Source: Escherichia phage vB_EcoM-ZQ1. Taken from it: DNA of 64,000 nt. This document shows, in pieces, positions 11,087 through 57,258 of the stretch. Within the stretch, counting starts at the first letter, position 1, and each line of letters opens with the position of its first letter. The stretch is taken from sequence record MW650886.1. One strand, written 5' to 3'. The notes under the pieces are model-generated. The model searched no databases and was not told where the DNA came from. It saw only the letters and a program-made list of their open reading frames with translations. The position numbers were made by a program, and so were the translations under genes.

Positions 11087-11893
11087 ATGAATTTACCATC
11101 ATTGCCCAGAACAGAAAAGACATATAAAAGCGACTTTTGGCCTACTGTGATCAAATATCGCGCCTTTACTGCAGGGCAACAAACTTTATTACTTCAGGTG
11201 TCAGATCCGCAAACGCCGATTGAAGAACGCGCGGCCATGATGGAGAGTCTCTTTAGCGAGTGTGTAAATGCAGGCGCACCTTTCAGTAAACTGCCAATCG
11301 GCGTTGTTGAGGAAGTGTTCATCCGCATGCGCATGATCTCCATCGGTGAATTGATGAAGATTCGCTATAAATGCAATAATCAGATTGAAGAAACGATCGA
11401 TCTGGGAGATGGTCAAGAAAAGCACCAGATGGTTCCCTGTGAGCAGGAACTGACTCTACCTATCCCGTTGAACAACGTCAAATGCATTGCTCAGGACGGC
11501 TTCCGGGAGACGTTTGACCTGCCAGGTGGATATCACCTCAAGATGCGCCAACCTTCCTTCTCGGACGCTACGGCACTGTCTGATGCTGCAAGCGTTGAGA
11601 TGATGCTGGCCACCTTTATCGACTGCCTGTACGATGATGACGGTCAGGTGTGGAAGGTTGAGAATCCTGAAGAAATCGGAATCACTCCGGAAGAGGCTAC
11701 TGAGCGCCGCCGTGTGAAAGAAGCGTTTGTTGAGTGGGTGAAGGATAACATCGAATCAGATGTTATTGACAGCATTACGAAGAACTTCTTCCACAAAATA
11801 CCGCGCATCCACTACAAGAGTTCGATCAAGTGTCCGAAATGTGGTAAGGATCACAAAATCGAATTCAATAGTATTAATGAAATTTTCATTTAA
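11087..11893 (+). CDS. hypothetical protein with C-terminal zinc ribbon, immediately upstream of the gp5-like spike gene
   Basis: ATG MNLPSLPRTEK preceded by GGAG; C-terminal CPKCGKDHK; the listed ORF starts earlier on a non-ATG codon. Confidence 0.5.
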   Translation: MNLPSLPRTEKTYKSDFWPTVIKYRAFTAGQQTLLLQVSDPQTPIEERAAMMESLFSECVNAGAPFSKLPIGVVEEVFIRMRMISIGELMKIRYKCNNQIEETIDLGDGQEKHQMVPCEQELTLPIPLNNVKCIAQDGFRETFDLPGGYHLKMRQPSFSDATALSDAASVEMMLATFIDCLYDDDGQVWKVENPEEIGITPEEATERRRVKEAFVEWVKDNIESDVIDSITKNFFHKIPRIHYKSSIKCPKCGKDHKIEFNSINEIFI

Positions 11894-12042
11894 TGTTTGA
11901 AACTGATTTATTATCCTACTTCGTGATGTGTGATGAATTGAAGTTACACGGCTATAGCATATTTGAAATCAACGAGTCGATGCCATGGCATCTTGACTTG
12001 TTAACCGAAGCCCTCAAGGTCAGGTTGTCTAAGAAACAGTAA
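11893..12042 (+). CDS. small hypothetical ORF (49 aa)
   Basis: TAATG-coupled to the previous gene (MFETDLLSYFVMCDELKLHGYSIFEINESMPWHLDLLTEALKVRLSKKQ), followed directly by an intrinsic terminator; below the ORF-track size cutoff. Confidence 0.25.
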   Translation: MFETDLLSYFVMCDELKLHGYSIFEINESMPWHLDLLTEALKVRLSKKQ

Positions 12043-12066
12043 TCCCGCTTCGGCGGGATTTTTATT
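12042..12066 (+). terminator. intrinsic terminator
   Basis: ATCCCGC-TTCG-GCGGGAT hairpin followed by TTTTTATT. Confidence 0.6.
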
Positions 12067-12112
12067 GTCTTAACTGCAAAATAGGTTAACACGCGTTCTC
12101 TTTACCTGAAAT

Positions 12113-12121
12113 TGCTATAAT
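12113..12121 (+). promoter_or_regulatory. possible extended -10 promoter (TGcTATAAT)
   Basis: TGCTATAAT in the long non-coding stretch upstream of the gp5-like gene; no clear -35. Confidence 0.25.
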
Positions 12122-12277
12122 GGGCTTGTTCCCGAGTCATTTGTTGGTGTTTGTCTGTTTTGAATCAGATTGTCAGTAAAATACCATTTTTCAAGGAGTG
12201 TTCTGGGGTGTACAGTTATTGCCTCGCCCTTATGCCTCCATGGCATTGGAATGGTGCTGCCCGCATAGGGCGGTTTG

Positions 12278-12296
12278 ATGAGCGAAGCGAATAGGA
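12278..12296. repeat. 19-mer shared with 54425..54443 in inverse orientation
   Basis: ATGAGCGAAGCGAATAGGA is the exact reverse complement of TCCTATTCGCTTCGCTCAT; each copy is flanked by ATAAAACAAATA. Confidence 0.55.
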
Positions 12297-12363
12297 TCGA
12301 ATAAAACAAATAAAATGAACGGAAGCAGAGCTTCCTATAGTATATAAGGCAAAATCAGCTGCG

Positions 12364-12371
12364 CATAAATA
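12364..12371 (+). promoter_or_regulatory. late-promoter-like motif CATAAATA
   Basis: 7/8 match to TATAAATA, 34 nt upstream of the gp5-like ATG; same spacing as the motif at 6251. Confidence 0.4.
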
Positions 12372-12405
12372 CCTTCAAATCCTTGTTTGACAACCGGAAC
12401 TCAAT

Positions 12406-14016
12406 ATGTTAGACAATATGAGATGGTTTTACGGCACCGTTGAAGATGTCAACGATCCAGACCAAAACGGGCGAGTTGCTGTTCGCATATATGGCGTACA
12501 CACCGACGATCCCGTCCTCCTGCCTACGGACAAACTCCCATGGGCGAAGGTACTGATGCCTGCTTCAAACGCCTCCTCTGCTGGTTTAGGTTGGTCTCCA
12601 ACGGGTATCATTCCTGGTACTGAGGTTATGGGGTTCGCCCTTGACGAAGCATACCAGAATTTACGCATCACCTGGACTTGGACTGGTTCAAGTCCTACTG
12701 ATGGTGCCGACACAAACCCACTGGCTCTCGGGCAGGTCGTTCAATCTGTGGAACGTCAGGCGTACAACGCCGTCACTGACGTTCCTGTGAAACAAGAAGA
12801 CGAACCACAACCAGATCCACAACCACCTGTTGGCGGGTATGATCCAGAGAAGTGGATGACAATCGCTCGTGGCGAATTGGGTATCAAGGAGTACGCTGGA
12901 AAGTTCAACAACAACCCGCGCATTATAGAATATCACAAGACAACCTCCCTTGGTGCTTCTGAAGATGAAGTGTCGTGGTGTGCGGCGTTCGTGGGTTGGG
13001 TTATGATACAGGCTGGATACACGTCTACACGCTCCGCTCTTGCCCGATCTTACCTTACATGGGGCACTCCACTGTCAGCACCACAATATGGCGCTATCGT
13101 AGTCTTCCGGCGTGGTAACAACCCTACATTTGGACACGTAGCGTTTGTGCAGAAGTTCGATGCAAACTATGTCTGGTGTATTGGTGGCAACCAATCCGAT
13201 TCAGTGAAGGTTAGTCGTTTCAGACGTTCTTCGGTCTTGGGATATCGTTGGCCTGGTCCTGCTAACACAGCCACAGCCGTGCCTGCGCAGCAGAATGGTA
13301 AATGGTCAGAACCTATCCCAGATCGTACTCCAAAGGAACAACCGACTCCGGCTCCTACTGGGCGAGTACAGGATATTGACAACACTGGAGAAACCATGGT
13401 TCCGGCTGCGGGTGGCTCCAAATACCCGTACAATAACGTCATGGTGTCCCGAGCTGGGCATATTATGGAAGTGGATGACACCCCTGGTGGTGAACGTCTT
13501 CATTGGATGCATAAGTCTGGGTCTTACAAGCAAATGTTGCCGGATGGTGATGTGGTCAACAAGTCCGTCAAAGACCACTATGACCTGACGATGTTCAACA
13601 AGCGTTATTATGTCGGCGGGGACCACAACCTGACGGTCAAAGGAACTGAAGTTCAGCGCAAGACAGGTGAGGTCTATCATTTGCATTCCAACAACTACTC
13701 AAATGTGGTTGCGGGCACAGCGCTGATGAAATTCAGTGACCTAGCGGAAATGCAAGCGCAGAATATTCTGCGCATTATCTGCGAGACTCTGGAGGTCGGC
13801 GGGACATTGAAGGTTCCTAAGATTCTAACGACTGAGATCATCGCTGACAAACTGACTGTCGCTCAGACGATCAATGGTAACATCATATATGCCGAAGGTG
13901 CTGGTCGCGCTTCTTCTCTGTCAGGTGCAACCCCTGCATCCCCTACGGGTCCGGGTGAGATTGACATCAAGGCAGAATTAAAAGACAATGGTGGTAATTT
14001 CGGCACCAAAGAGTAA
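12406..14016 (+). CDS. baseplate central spike protein (T4 gp5-like N-terminal OB domain) with cysteine peptidase (CHAP/NlpC-P60-like) domain
   Basis: WFYGTVEDVNDPDQNGRVAVRIYGVHTDDPVLLPTDKLPWAKVLMP matches the T4 gp5 N-terminus; internal SWCAAFVGWV...GHVAFVQ gives the Cys/His peptidase signature; Gly/Ser-rich C-terminus. Confidence 0.8.
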   Translation: MLDNMRWFYGTVEDVNDPDQNGRVAVRIYGVHTDDPVLLPTDKLPWAKVLMPASNASSAGLGWSPTGIIPGTEVMGFALDEAYQNLRITWTWTGSSPTDGADTNPLALGQVVQSVERQAYNAVTDVPVKQEDEPQPDPQPPVGGYDPEKWMTIARGELGIKEYAGKFNNNPRIIEYHKTTSLGASEDEVSWCAAFVGWVMIQAGYTSTRSALARSYLTWGTPLSAPQYGAIVVFRRGNNPTFGHVAFVQKFDANYVWCIGGNQSDSVKVSRFRRSSVLGYRWPGPANTATAVPAQQNGKWSEPIPDRTPKEQPTPAPTGRVQDIDNTGETMVPAAGGSKYPYNNVMVSRAGHIMEVDDTPGGERLHWMHKSGSYKQMLPDGDVVNKSVKDHYDLTMFNKRYYVGGDHNLTVKGTEVQRKTGEVYHLHSNNYSNVVAGTALMKFSDLAEMQAQNILRIICETLEVGGTLKVPKILTTEIIADKLTVAQTINGNIIYAEGAGRASSLSGATPASPTGPGEIDIKAELKDNGGNFGTKE

Positions 14017-54245: not shown

Positions 54246-54377
54246 TTGTATGTATCCTCAAAATATAGTGGGGGTTCAAGTCATGTTTGACGCAATCTAG
54301 TATCGCTGTGTTTTGCTTATAGAACAAGTGGCAAATTGCGCTACGCGTTATTAATAAATGCCTTCGGCATTTATGGA

Positions 54378-54424
54378 CTTTATTAAAGATAATAACCTTT
54401 ATTAAAGATAATAATCTTTATTAA
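54378..54424. repeat. tandem repeat, about 2.5 copies of a 19-bp AT-rich unit
   Basis: CTTTATTAAAGATAATAA(C/T) repeated in the divergent gp45 upstream region. Confidence 0.6.
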
Positions 54425-54443
54425 TCCTATTCGCTTCGCTCAT
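54425..54443. repeat. 19-mer TCCTATTCGCTTCGCTCAT
   Basis: Exact match to the reverse complement of 12278..12296. Confidence 0.55.
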
Positions 54444-54457
54444 AAAACAAATACTCG

Positions 54458-54487
54458 TTGTTCGCTAACGCTCACAACTCGTATAAT
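54458..54487 (+). promoter_or_regulatory. sigma70-like promoter (-35 TTGTTC, 18 nt, -10 TATAAT)
   Basis: Read directly on the plus strand upstream of the 54607 gene. Confidence 0.4.
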
Positions 54488-54606
54488 ACCACGCCATTGT
54501 TCAACAAGAAAGCAGTTTTTATTCAACAGCAAAATTAATTTATTTGGTCTAAACATGCACGCGAAATAATATGTATGTCATGTTAACCAACATACGAGAG
54601 TAATAT

Positions 54607-54978
54607 ATGAAACAGTTCGTAGGATTATACGCAGTTGGGTGTAGTAAACCAGACGCCAAGCTCACCACAGATCAATTTACCACAGGCACCCCAGTTTATC
54701 TGACACAGCTGGCGTCAGACAAGAACTTACCATCGGAGCCGCGATTTGTCCCTCTGGGGTTGATGACAGGTCTGAAAGTTGGTCTGTATGTCGGTGTGGT
54801 GACGTTTGAAAATGGCGTCGAAGCGAAAGTTCTGCCATTCAAATTGGGCAGCGAAGAAATGCTGAAGGATACGATCAGTGAACACCTGAACTCACAATGT
54901 CTGGCTTCTCTGGACAAATTGTTCGGTGTAGTAACTGATGAAGGCGAGGCCACCCCCGCCTATGTGAATCAAGATTAA
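54607..54978 (+). CDS. hypothetical protein
   Basis: 123 aa plus-strand ORF, divergent from gene 45; sigma70-like promoter about 120 nt upstream. Confidence 0.45.
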   Translation: MKQFVGLYAVGCSKPDAKLTTDQFTTGTPVYLTQLASDKNLPSEPRFVPLGLMTGLKVGLYVGVVTFENGVEAKVLPFKLGSEEMLKDTISEHLNSQCLASLDKLFGVVTDEGEATPAYVNQD

Positions 54979-56483
54979 TCGTGATTACCCAGCGCCACCT
55001 TCATGAACTCCACAGGGTGGCGCTCTGCCAGGTAAAACTTGTAACGCTCGTGAGAGTGCCTAAGAGCGTGGTTCGTGCTGGCGTTGTACGATGCATCATC
55101 CACTAAGTCCCATATCCACGCGACGTCCTTAGAGGAGTGCTGACGCATCAGACGACCCAATGTCTGTATGACGCGGATATATGACTTGCTCGGGTGTGCC
55201 AGTACAAGGTGGTGTAGCTTCTTGATCGACACTCCCTGCTGCATTGTCCCGTATGAAGCCAACAACGTGATATCTTCTCCATCCTCCATCGCTTTCTGTA
55301 TGCGGCGGCGGTCTTCGATCTTCACTTCCCCGTTGATGACAAACACGTTGGGCTTGACTGCGCTCAGCATATCGTACACAACCATCATGTGGGCGTCAAT
55401 ACGCTCGAACATGATGGCCACGTTCCCTTTCAGATTCAGTGCCATCTTGGCGATCAGTTCGTTGCGGGACTGGTGTGTGATAAGGTATTCTATTTCCTTG
55501 GAATAATCCCCGTCCAGACCAACAGCATCCGCCGGAGTGTGCTTCAGCTGAATCATCTTCACTTTGATGTCAGTGGCGTATCCGAGATTGATAAGATCGC
55601 GAGCCGTGATGATCTTATGGTACGCCCCGAAGTGAGCCACCACCTGAAGCCCGGCAACTTTGGTATTCGCCAGCGTACCTGTAACCCCCAAGCGCTGGTC
55701 GGCATAGATGCAGTTGTTTAGGATGTAAGACAGTTTCTCAGACTTGGAGGTGTGCACTTCATCCACCACGATATCACCGAACTGGTGGAACCATTCCTTC
55801 GGTTGATCTTGAATGCCTTGCCATGTACTGATGACGATTGGTTTGCTGATCTCCTTTGTCGCGCCCTCAAAAATCAGCTGGGTGTTAACAACGGGCTTCC
55901 AATCACTGCCATGCGCATACTCTTCGAAGTTGTCGTACAGCTGAGTGACTAAGTGGATTGACGGCACCACGATAAGCGTCTTCAGAGGACTTTCGAGAGC
56001 TTCTCTGCGCCGCCTGTAGTACCGCGCCATGACATACAGAATAAAGGACTTACCGGCACTCGTAGCCAGTTCACAGACGCATCTGGTTTGACGCATAGCC
56101 TTGGCGATGGTGTCGTACTGGTAGTCACGAGTCTCGGCATCGATATATTCGTGATTTTCGGTGCGGATCTTTGGATGCAGACTGTCGATGAAGTCACGGA
56201 TTTCTTCATCTGGGATGTCCTGAATGTACTTCAGCGCCGGATCCAGTTCAATGGTGTATCCGTTGTTCTTACAGAACTTAAATACCTCAAACAGCAGACC
56301 GATATCGATTAGACCAGATGACTTGGTAAATAGGCGGACAACCCCGTCCCATTTAGAGAAGGGGTTGGGAACGAAGTTCGGGTCTTCGAATTTGAAGTAG
56401 TCATTAAGTTCTTCCCTGATAGAAAGATCTGCGATGCAACGCATGCGGACTTCGTTAACCTTAACAATCTGAATGTCTGCCAT
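54975..56483 (-). CDS. uvsW: UvsW-like SF2 helicase
   Basis: N-terminal VKVNEVRMRCIADLSIREELNDYFKFEDPNF..WDGVVRLF and ATSAGKS resemble T4 UvsW; length about 502 aa from ATG MADIQ (GGGAGA SD). Confidence 0.8.
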   Translation of the reverse strand: MADIQIVKVNEVRMRCIADLSIREELNDYFKFEDPNFVPNPFSKWDGVVRLFTKSSGLIDIGLLFEVFKFCKNNGYTIELDPALKYIQDIPDEEIRDFIDSLHPKIRTENHEYIDAETRDYQYDTIAKAMRQTRCVCELATSAGKSFILYVMARYYRRRREALESPLKTLIVVPSIHLVTQLYDNFEEYAHGSDWKPVVNTQLIFEGATKEISKPIVISTWQGIQDQPKEWFHQFGDIVVDEVHTSKSEKLSYILNNCIYADQRLGVTGTLANTKVAGLQVVAHFGAYHKIITARDLINLGYATDIKVKMIQLKHTPADAVGLDGDYSKEIEYLITHQSRNELIAKMALNLKGNVAIMFERIDAHMMVVYDMLSAVKPNVFVINGEVKIEDRRRIQKAMEDGEDITLLASYGTMQQGVSIKKLHHLVLAHPSKSYIRVIQTLGRLMRQHSSKDVAWIWDLVDDASYNASTNHALRHSHERYKFYLAERHPVEFMKVALGNHD

Positions 56484-56511
56484 ACAAAATCTCCCAAGGA
56501 TTATGGGGTAT

Positions 56512-57258
56512 TTAGTGATCCGGCCAGACTCCGTTTTGTTCTTTATCCATGCGATGATACAGACGAACACGCTCAAACATCTTTGTCAGAATGTCATCAC
56601 GGTTGAACTCAATGACGGTTGGTAGAGGGGAAGACTCGTTGGCAATCACGTTGATGAGGCGGGTGATCTTGACGCCGAACATCTGCTGGAACATGACCGA
56701 ATATAAGCACAGCTGGATACTGTAATCCTCGATCATGCCCCGCGTCTTCATGGTGTTCGATGTCTTGAAGTCGATGACAGCAGGTTTACCCTCATAAACC
56801 CCGATAAGGTCTACACGACCTGCAAGACCAAGCACCTCGCTATATAATGGGATCTCCTGAGCATAGATCTTTGTCATCTTGTTCAGGTAAGGGAACAGCT
56901 GCTTGAACATGAACATGTATTCGCCAGCCGCTTCCAACACTTCTTTCATTGGGCGGTTCTTTAGATACAGTTCACACGCAAGGTGCAGCTTCTCCCCTCG
57001 GTCAGCACAGCGCATGGTCTCAAGGTCAGCGGCTTCTGCGCCCAGCTTCTTCCTCCAAGACTCAAGCCATTCATGATCTCCAGTGCGTCCCAGCATAGTC
57101 GTGACGGATGTCAGTTTAACACCAGACGGTGAAACATAATGACGACCATTCTCCGTCGTAACACATTCCAGTTCCTTATGAGGAAGTTCGTATTGCTGGA
57201 ATGTGTAATGGCGGTTTTCGAAGTCATTCAGCTTGCGTAGATCCTGGAGAGATGCCAT
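56512..57258 (-). CDS. PD-(D/E)xK family nuclease (RecB/Cas4-like)
   Basis: VDLIGVYEGKPAVIDFKTS and QLCLYS resemble the D...E.K / QxxxY nuclease core. Confidence 0.45.
   Translation of the reverse strand: MASLQDLRKLNDFENRHYTFQQYELPHKELECVTTENGRHYVSPSGVKLTSVTTMLGRTGDHEWLESWRKKLGAEAADLETMRCADRGEKLHLACELYLKNRPMKEVLEAAGEYMFMFKQLFPYLNKMTKIYAQEIPLYSEVLGLAGRVDLIGVYEGKPAVIDFKTSNTMKTRGMIEDYSIQLCLYSVMFQQMFGVKITRLINVIANESSPLPTVIEFNRDDILTKMFERVRLYHRMDKEQNGVWPDH

Follow-up and report, generated by a model that had tools for sequence, protein, structure and literature searches.

A 20-mer shared by two gene deserts of an Escherichia phage probably caps a hairpin in a three-member family of structured non-coding elements

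Why should two long gene deserts of one phage genome carry the same 20 nucleotides (nt) in opposite orientations? The question arises in a 64,000-nt stretch of Escherichia phage vB_EcoM-ZQ1 (sequence record MW650886.1; the whole stretch is called the window hereafter), a phage of the family Ackermannviridae, subfamily Aglimvirinae. One desert, site 1, precedes the sliding clamp gene gp45, and the other, site 2, precedes the baseplate hub gene gp5 (start codon at 12406). Both had been called non-coding in the original prediction, a reading of the letters alone, and both are. Comparison with related genomes suggests that the 20-mer is the top of a hairpin in a three-element family of structured non-coding elements, most likely, though far from surely, protein-bound structured RNAs.

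54246–54606: site 1 spacer, non-coding, between gp45 (minus strand) and a plus-strand open reading frame (ORF) of 123 amino acids
54243–54245, minus strand: start codon of gp45 (sliding clamp)
12043–12405: site 2 spacer, between a 49-amino-acid ORF with its terminator (gp26 operon) and gp5

The 19-mer TCCTATTCGCTTCGCTCAT at 54425–54443 (plus strand) had been predicted to recur in inverted orientation, and it does, at 12278–12296 (minus strand); at up to three mismatches these are its sole matches in the window (chance expectation 0.01; none of 100 shuffles gave two). Exact identity extends one base further than predicted, to the 20-mer ATCCTATTCGCTTCGCTCAT at 54424–54443, with its reverse complement at 12278–12297. 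Frequent occurrence throughout the genome had been named as the outcome that would speak against a special site. Whole-genome counts were made on the complete 154,840-bp genome of Escherichia phage vB_EcoM-RPN242, the closest complete relative, whose site 1 spacer is 99.4% identical to that of the window; there the 20-mer occurs exactly twice, with no other site within five mismatches. These counts rule out a general promoter motif.

Conservation of the surrounding spacers was evaluated across three lineages, namely Aglimvirinae, Kuttervirus and Taipeivirus (the Klebsiella/Serratia group), with sites 1 and 2 taken from ~20 genomes for alignment. Other Agtrevirus and Limestonevirus genomes match the 1.4 kb around the site 1 spacer at 90–98% identity. 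Used alone as queries in sensitive searches, the spacers of sites 1 and 2 returned ~270 records each (273 related records at site 1), at identities of ~77–79% in Kuttervirus and ~70% in Taipeivirus, and the spacers carry no annotation in nearly all related records. Conservation of this degree in gene deserts calls for a functional explanation. Small peptide genes were ruled out, every frame being broken by insertions or deletions of 1–2 nt between lineages.

A third copy emerged from profile searches of the whole RPN242 genome. The site 2 profile found, besides site 2 itself, a locus (site 3) at E=5e-13, as well as site 1 weakly, and the site 1 profile touches site 3 weakly. Site 3 lies outside the window, at 132,740–133,105 of RPN242 on the minus strand, in a ~370-bp gene desert just upstream of a gp6-like baseplate wedge gene, and it is kept in 270 records.

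What is conserved at the shared 20-mer becomes apparent when lineages are compared. The motif reads A-T-TCGC ... GCTC-A-T in Aglimvirinae and A-C-TCGC ... GCTC-G-T in Kuttervirus and Taipeivirus, around a centre of 3–4 nt that is free to differ between lineages at sites 1 and 2. For the site 2 alignment, RNAalifold predicts pairing within the motif, so that the T/C and A/G lineage differences amount to one compensatory pair and the free middle to a loop. The 20-mer is thus, on comparative evidence, a small conserved hairpin of the predicted form 5'-A-Y-GA-GC-(loop)-GC-GA-R-U-3', with a symmetric tandem G.A / A.G internal loop.

54424–54448, minus strand: short hairpin of site 1, 5'-GUUUU-AUGAGC-GAA-GCGAAU-AGGAU-3'
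12278–12297, plus strand: short hairpin of site 2, 5'-AUGAGC-GAA-GCGAAU-AGGAU-3'

At site 1 the core pairs are C-G, G-C, tandem A.G/G.A, U-A and A-U, and the AGGAU flank lengthens the stem by U.G pairs. The Y-R pair in the site 2 alignment (columns 170/183) is CG in 13 sequences and UA in five, while the closing pair is CG 15/UA 3 among site 1 orthologues and CG 15/UA 4 at sites 2 and 3 combined, with all cells paired. Loops range from 3 to 18 nt (GAA, GUA, AAA, UUCA, AAC, AUA, and inserts of 13 or 18 nt). Folding is strand-dependent: −4.2 kcal/mol on the minus strand vs 0 on the plus strand at site 1, and −5.6 kcal/mol on the plus strand vs −1.1 on the minus strand at site 2. Because the better folds lie there, and because the tandem G.A / A.G would read C.U / U.C on the complementary strand, we take the functional sense to be minus at site 1 and plus at site 2.

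Loops may be alike within one genome: contig 2974547325 has GUA at all three sites, and its relative Magnus has GAA, AAC and GAA. Such sharing could stem from a partner common to the three sites or from gene conversion within the genome. The predicted 12-mer next to both copies, ATAAAACAAATA, is also present, at 54442–54453 and 12301–12312. It has the same orientation at both sites, while the 20-mer is inverted, so that it lies on opposite sides of the hairpin (a U-rich 5' flank at site 1, an A-rich 3' flank at site 2); no further occurrence was found at up to one mismatch in the whole RPN242 genome, and an exact 12-mer common to both sites is confined to the window's clade. It could be left over from a once longer A-U stem. 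A generic scan of the genome for G.A hairpins was uninformative (128 matches vs ~96 in shuffles). One sequence at RPN242 76,248 (plus strand), ACGAGTTCAGCGAGT, closely resembles the Kuttervirus short hairpin of site 2; it lies inside a minus-strand gene and is probably a chance match.

Two further candidates for the 20-mer were considered and rejected. The arrangement UUGAUGA-GC-GAA-GC-GAAU resembles a hammerhead ribozyme (CUGAUGA-stem II-GAAA); this core is lost in Kuttervirus (GUUACGA...GAGU), and Rfam gave no match. Antisense pairing in trans between site 1 and site 2 transcripts fails as well, as the changes are compensatory within each hairpin and the two sense strands have the same sequence instead of complementary ones.

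At site 1, the short hairpin is accompanied by a longer one with two tandem G.A motifs, and by promoter-like signals on the opposite strand.

54451–54484, minus strand: long hairpin, 5'-AUAC-GA-GUUGU-GA-GC-GUUA-GC-GA-ACAAC-GA-GUAU-3'
54497–54512: conserved block TTGTTCAACAAGAAAG, which reads CUUUCUUGUUGA in the minus sense
54458–54487, plus strand: putative promoter-like signal P1, TTGTTC-18-TATAAT, with its −10 at 54482–54487, overlapping the long hairpin
54544–54572, plus strand: putative promoter-like signal P2, TTGGTC-17-TAATAT, proximal to the ORF starting at 54607

The long hairpin folds at −12.8 kcal/mol (z = −3.0) on the minus strand and at −8.2 on the opposite strand. Its loop-closing pair shows a compensatory C-G to U-A change in LIMEstone1, and a U.G pair present in five of nine sequences alternates with U-A, where the opposite strand would hold a C.A mismatch. 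The exact pattern occurs twice per genome, in constant mutual orientation, in 19 Ackermannviridae genomes of IMG/VR and in one fragment, and nowhere else in that database. RNAalifold additionally pairs the conserved block with the 5' half of the short hairpin (54432–54445, minus sense), in an alternative helix that would have the long hairpin inside it and could not coexist with the short one; its pairs are conserved and none is changed on both sides, which leaves this helix unproven.

The plus-strand signals bear on a different explanation, in which the 20-mer would be a double-stranded DNA operator, or part of a phage-specific "middle" promoter, controlling the 54607 ORF and gp5. At site 1 the 20-mer does lie 40–60 bp upstream of a plus-strand −10 box, a related box overlaps this promoter's −35/spacer, partial dyad symmetry is what a dimeric protein could use, and the annotators of LIMEstone1 placed a putative middle promoter on the 19-mer. 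The −10 of P1 reads TATAAT, TATATT or TATAGT across lineages; the hexamers of P2 are conserved around a variable spacer in all three, and the LIMEstone1 annotators put a −10 there on the opposite strand. However, site 3 has the same hairpins with no promoter on the opposite strand, and since its long hairpin lacks such an opposite-strand −10, conservation of the long hairpin is independent of P1. An operator would also be expected to keep a fixed spacing, but the half-sites here are 3, 4, 13 or 18 nt apart, with four of six positions per half symmetric and two asymmetric, and the G.U-type changes are strand-specific. A promoter motif, for its part, should recur many times rather than twice, as would the MotA box at −30 that marks MotA-dependent middle promoters upstream of many middle genes. 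In LIMEstone the promoters had been called by matching patterns to the consensus sequences of T4 (PMC3296691), and both MotA and AsiA are missing from ViI-like phages (PMC3184105); with a motif present twice per genome and annotated by consensus match, the middle-promoter annotation is untenable. We thus consider an operator or middle promoter very unlikely, and the predicted site-specific protein-binding site in double-stranded DNA fits the spacing and the compensatory changes poorly.

Site 2 carries, besides the short hairpin, a pseudoknot and further helices.

12232–12254, plus strand: pseudoknotted hairpin, AUGCC-UCCAU-GGCAU, whose loop can pair with a downstream AUGG (H-type pseudoknot)
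12256–12274, plus strand: third helix, GCUGCCC-GCAUA-GGGCGGU
12298–12335, plus strand: A-rich tract, holding the 12-mer (12301–12312) and then a hairpin, GGAAGC-AGA-GCUUCC (12321–12335)

Between paralogues, stem pairs of the pseudoknotted hairpin alternate (AU 10/CG 9 and UA 10/AU 9) with all cells paired, and a pseudoknot pair alternates as well (AU 13/CG 6), CG being the Taipeivirus state at both sites 2 and 3. In the third helix two pairs are changed on both sides, and the presence of U.G in 17 of 19 sequences and of G.U in 11 of 19 fixes the sense strand. We also considered whether this third helix mimics a CRISPR repeat, as it resembles a type I-F repeat; it gave no CRISPR-DR match at E≤10, its stem and loop vary by lineage, and most hosts would carry other CRISPR types, so this candidate was rejected. 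The hairpin at 12321–12335 shows a compensatory change in Taipeivirus (GGAUGC...GCAUCC).

Site 3 joins the modules of the other two. It contains the long double-G.A hairpin, as at site 1, and the pseudoknotted hairpin and third helix, as at site 2. After these come the short hairpin, then an A/U-rich tract, and finally a box resembling a late promoter. Its short hairpin has a triloop in Limestonevirus and Taipeivirus, an 18-nt inserted helix as the loop in Kuttervirus, and a 13-nt insert in P46FS4. The short hairpin of Limestonevirus is of the C-G form at site 3 and of the U-A form at the other two sites, which shows that pairing is required, not base identity. Each element reads in the direction of the next gene, i.e., gp45, gp5 or gp6, which accounts for the opposite map orientations of the copies at sites 1 and 2, and after the hairpins come an A/U-rich tract, another hairpin and then the downstream gene's own promoter. 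Judged by sequence comparison, the elements appear to form a three-member paralogous family of ~200–250 nt each, present in every enterobacterial Ackermannviridae genome examined. No paralogy was found between the divergent ORFs beside sites 1 and 3.

The predicted helices were then set against shuffled alignments and against slid controls. For the combined core of sites 2 and 3 (19 distinct sequences; 19 pairs in four helices, including the pseudoknot), 361 of 361 cells are paired vs 25–52% in slid controls, six of the 19 pairs are changed on both sides, one of them a pseudoknot pair, and none of 500 shuffles reached the score. The long hairpin of sites 1 and 3 (nine distinct sequences, 11 pairs) is paired in 99 of 99 cells, with four of 11 pairs changed on both sides (0/500 shuffles; slid controls 22–62%). 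Among site 1 orthologues alone (18 sequences; 24 pairs in three helices), both hairpins with CGAG motifs are 100% paired (0/500 shuffles; slid controls 24–44%), with few changes on both sides as these sequences hardly vary. Compensatory pairs are thus present beyond both controls, as expected of a conserved structured RNA. Strand specificity was likewise apparent: folding energies differ by strand, and U.G or G.U pairs, present in the majority of sequences, would become C.A mismatches on the other strand, as G.A would become C.U. Overall, pairing rather than sequence appears to be conserved.

Shared sequence without a function of its own, i.e., the remnant of an old duplication kept alike by gene conversion in a highly recombinogenic phage, has to be weighed against these figures. 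Some homogenization is evident: loops and flanks are alike within genomes, and site 3 of the RPN242/window lineage has been exchanged with Kuttervirus, being 94% identical to that genus (Det7 and others) vs ~80% to Agtrevirus P46FS4 and ~79% to Limestonevirus, a pattern that points to a recombinant module on the baseplate/tailspike side. Yet gene conversion accounts neither for the full (100%) pairing that compensatory changes maintain among lineages and paralogues, nor for covariation in the pseudoknot, nor for three non-coding regions kept at 70–79% identity across genera, and we regard functionless remnants as extremely unlikely.

In the protein-bound RNA that we favor, the structures would form in transcripts. 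At site 1 the RNA would either belong to the uvsW transcript, as its 3' end, or be transcribed separately, and RNA of sites 2 and 3 would come from a dedicated −10-type promoter. Symmetric G.A platforms are a common protein-recognition feature in RNA; here the platform would be recognized by a single RNA-binding protein, of phage or host origin, common to all three elements, and the elements would act as ribonucleoprotein modules that set the fate of the transcript (termination, processing or stability) before gp45, gp5 and gp6. The perfect identity of the 20-mer in the window phage would reflect common descent together with exchange between copies within the genome. Small RNAs were the suggestion stressed least in the original prediction, and they fit best, given the covariation, strand asymmetry, variable-length loop and pseudoknot; its observations largely held, while the readings it preferred (iterons or an origin, and a protein-binding DNA site) did not survive as stated.

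Several points weigh against this interpretation. The presumed promoters are weak matches: a promoter scan finds none at site 2, and the −10 is TATAAC in several lineages. The hairpin at 12321–12335 scored as terminator-like on the minus strand only, where a U-rich run follows. A literature search found no Ackermannviridae transcriptome, and transcription in the proposed sense is inferred; nor was a candidate RNA-binding partner identified, the neighboring 123-amino-acid ORF having no recognizable fold. Few independent events (three lineages by three paralogues) stand behind the covariation, which intragenomic exchange between copies could inflate, and the same helices could form in single-stranded DNA. 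As a separate observation on the 12321–12335 hairpin, there is no obvious minus-strand transcript to be terminated there.

12113–12121, plus strand: extended −10-like box TGCTATAAT, the presumed start of the site 2 transcript
12044–12066, plus strand: strong intrinsic terminator of the gp26 operon

A role in DNA replication had been proposed from the repeats of site 1, counted by eye at about 2.5 tandem copies, and Tandem Repeats Finder agrees.

54378–54424: tandem repeat of unit CTTTATTAAAGATAATAAY, period 19, 2.5 copies, 96% matches

The repeat sits in the A/U-rich tract 3' of the short hairpin (minus sense), and each 19-bp unit holds the inverted repeat TTATTA-AAGA-TAATAA. In the RPN242 genome the unit is found at site 1 only. 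Two full units (2.5 copies) are present in the window, RPN242 and one metagenomic contig only, one full unit (1.5 copies) in LIMEstone1, P46FS4 and contig 142553 (Agtrevirus), and none in Kuttervirus and Taipeivirus, though the rest of the spacer is conserved there. An iteron array is ruled out by these 2.5 clade-specific copies that are not conserved among relatives, and with it the notion of iterated AT-rich repeats as an origin. Expansion from 1.5 to 2.5 copies also recalls the repeats of type III toxin-antitoxin systems; the unit is too short for that and has no structure of its own. From its distribution, we infer that the tandem repeat is a recent slippage duplication without a conserved role.

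An origin could still be of another kind, with the three elements acting as R-loop-type origins like those of T4: an early structured transcript would hybridize near the A/T-rich tract and prime the leading strand, the hairpins guiding hybrid formation or processing as in ColE1 RNA II. In T4, oriE lies between genes 5 and 6 and oriF beside uvsW/uvsY, the same neighborhoods as the sites described here. All three elements combine a −10-like box and a structured region with an A/T-rich tract (16–28% G+C, 150–200 nt from the presumed start, the promoters being putative). The sense strand is richer in G than in C at sites 1 and 2 (GC skew, i.e., the excess of G over C, of +0.30 and +0.19), but this skew is just +0.03 at site 3. 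T4 oriF and oriG consist of a promoter and a downstream unwinding region, oriE needs an early promoter, and active T4 origins lie near strand-switch regions with skew shifts (PMC3016281). In this respect, cumulative GC skew along the RPN242 genome reaches its global minimum at site 3, which is also the main strand switch, and local strand switches are found at sites 1 and 2; however, this coincidence is confounded because skew follows gene orientation in this genome. T4 origins, moreover, share no motif and have no known conserved RNA structure (PMC3016281), and the repeat array here is not conserved. Nothing examined supports origins specifically, and we consider R-loop origins unlikely.

The hairpin beyond the tandem repeat raises the question of whether the elements control termination.

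54354–54374: hairpin with 9-bp arms ATAAATGCC / GGCATTTAT and loop TTC, terminator-like in both directions
54299–54327, minus strand: putative gp45 promoter, sigma-70-like TTGTTC-17-GATACT, proposed from its conservation

This hairpin, located between the element and the gp45 promoter, had been predicted with a 4-nt loop, TTCG; the hairpin is there, and the loop has one G fewer. Kuttervirus keeps the hairpin with loop TGAC, and in Taipeivirus its position is taken by an unrelated palindrome, AATAGATTAATCTATT. A terminator scan calls the window hairpin on the plus strand, with nine pairs, three of them G-C, and the tails are moderately U-rich both ways; terminator-like sites in the region are no more numerous than in shuffles. 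The promoter hexamers of gp45 are invariant in the three lineages around a 17-nt spacer that varies.

Under processive antitermination of the kind known from lambda nutL/nutR or HK022 putL/putR, a promoter-proximal hairpin would modify RNA polymerase so that it reads through the following terminator-like hairpin into the operon. Several features would suit such a system, i.e., few copies per genome, each in the local transcription sense and hence inverted on the map, each before a terminator-like hairpin (54374–54354; 12321–12335) and a long co-directional gene block, and loops and 3' flanks common to the copies of one genome, as with a co-evolving partner. In ViI-like phages, which lack MotA and AsiA, antitermination was proposed for delayed-early timing (PMC3184105). 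Against this, the terminator-like hairpins are weak, and there is no evident need for read-through, given that gp5 and gp6 each possess a late promoter downstream of the element. A lambda-type nut site, with boxA 5' of the hairpin and an N-family protein, was not found either: the boxA-like GCTCATAAAACAA is confined to site 1 in the window clade, where it lies on the wrong strand, and is absent in Kuttervirus, and no N homologue is annotated in RPN242, where no search aimed at N was made. Antitermination sites are, in our estimate, quite unlikely.

A broader proposal embraces both of these ideas: the elements could be the missing cis-acting control points of the ViI-like programme, either structured-primer origins or put/nut-like antitermination RNAs. 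We hold this to be possible but doubtful. If true, antitermination RNAs would time the replication and baseplate blocks in a family without the MotA/AsiA middle mode, and the protein that operates these control points would recognize them by the tandem-G.A hairpin.

The segments next to the downstream genes are conserved as well. A box upstream of gp5 coincides with a late-promoter annotation in LIMEstone1 and is conserved in the three lineages, and site 3 has a similar box, CTAAATA, upstream of gp6.

12364–12371, plus strand: late-promoter-like box CATAAATA, upstream of gp5

Each of the two boxes is followed by YCTTCAA and lies ~35 nt upstream of its start codon. They look like the family version of the T4 late promoter TATAAATA; a late motif had not been identified as of 2011, according to the CBA120 paper (PMC3184105). 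In all lineages, an alternating CG run (CGCGCG and variants) comes after the element, at 54335–54350 and at site 3, and directly precedes the downstream promoter. The 5' leader of gp45, GCGUCAAACAUGACUUGAACCCCCACUAUAUUUUGAGGAUAC (54246–54300, minus strand), is almost invariant in the three lineages, which exceeds the need of a ribosome-binding site, and it may be a putative operator for the RegA-like translational repressor encoded downstream.

Beyond the enterobacterial phages, Vibrio phage K469 (gp45 36% identical) has none of the modules and no CGAG hairpins in its uvsW-gp45 spacer, while a hairpin similar to that at 54354–54374 lies between the two genes. Within the part of that stretch examined (1190–1500), uvsW ends in a strong terminator; between it and gp45 come, in order, the hairpin ACAAATGGCG-TC-GCCATTTGT, a stretch rich in A/T and a good promoter of the sigma-70 type. 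The general arrangement is therefore older than the CGAG hairpins. Across the whole window, Rfam gave no matches at gathering thresholds and, at E≤10, sub-threshold ones only, none of them over the cores; our literature search found no paper describing these spacer regions or non-coding RNAs of Ackermannviridae. The three-element structured family is previously undescribed.

The genes that flank the two spacers show features of their own.

54607–54978, plus strand: ORF of 123 amino acids, convergent with uvsW, PHROG 4255 (unknown function)
54975–56576: uvsW, a single uninterrupted ORF
11893–12042, plus strand: ORF of 49 amino acids after gp26

The 123-amino-acid ORF matches no Pfam family, and its AlphaFold model (predicted local distance difference test score, pLDDT, 79.5) has no fold match in the Protein Data Bank at E≤0.001. 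It has a conserved SLDKLFG segment and an invariant C-terminal GEATPAYVNQ; the former presumably resembles the sliding-clamp-binding peptides of T4 gp43, gp55 and gp33, which would suit its place beside gp45. The uvsW gene is split by the intron-encoded endonuclease I-LimI in LIMEstone1. The 49-amino-acid ORF matches PHROG 9633 and, weakly, a "baseplate hub assembly catalyst" PHROG (E=4e-4).

As candidates for biocontrol and therapy, Ackermannviridae (the ViI-, CBA120- and LIMEstone-like phages) are in wide use, and yet early promoters could not be identified in the founding genome paper of this family, which is without MotA and AsiA (PMC3184105). Three long gene deserts per genome, unannotated in ~270 records, appear to hold one family of strongly structured elements, in which an apparent shared protein-binding site turns out to be a compensated RNA-type helix and the "middle promoter" that LIMEstone1 annotation places on the hairpin is corrected. 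Experimenters are thereby given defined targets, i.e., three sites, a few base pairs, and one hairpin as bait for a binding protein, and these bear on how Ackermannviridae time gene expression or start replication.

How do these elements compare with known systems? With the iteron arrays of plasmid and phage origins, they have in common ~19-bp direct repeats in an A/T-rich non-coding region, but the repeats number 2.5 copies here, 1.5 in sister clades and none in other genera, with no recognizable initiator gene nearby. Like T4 oriF(uvsY), oriG(34) and oriE, they are promoter-proximal and non-coding, include an A/T-rich segment, and lie near strand switches, several per genome (PMC3016281) and near like genes (uvsW/uvsY and baseplate genes). 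The T4 origins, however, share neither sequence motif nor RNA structure, and oriE has 12-nt iterons that are conserved among relatives, unlike the clade-specific 19-bp repeat here.

Lambda nut boxB and HK022 put resemble the elements in being short hairpins in very few copies, oriented with local transcription and thus inverted on the genome, upstream of terminator-like hairpins, with conserved stems, loops that differ between copies and lineage variants common to the copies of one genome. The differences are a third copy, a tandem G.A internal loop with a loop of 3–18 nt instead of a GNRA-like pentaloop, no conserved boxA, no recognizable N protein (for which no aimed search was made), and the predicted embedding of the hairpin in a larger pseudoknotted structure.

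The translational operator of T4 gene 32 comprises a 5' pseudoknot and then an unstructured A/U-rich tract. Here too, a pseudoknot precedes, by tens of nt, an A/U-rich tract in which UAAA-type repeats occur, upstream of a gene; the elements matched no Rfam family, the genes are gp45, gp5 and gp6, promoters stand between the tract and the ribosome-binding sites, and there are extra hairpins.

Finally, tandem sheared G.A motifs are known as protein-recognition platforms in RNA, as in the kink-turns of box C/D RNAs and the L7Ae/L30 sites and in the symmetric 5'-CGAG-3' mismatch. The hairpins here lack the 3-nt bulge and so are not kink-turns by definition, and no L7Ae-type protein came up in the phage, where no search aimed at one was made; they do share the adjacent G.A / A.G between Watson-Crick pairs, with 5'-CGAG-3' on both strands in most copies.

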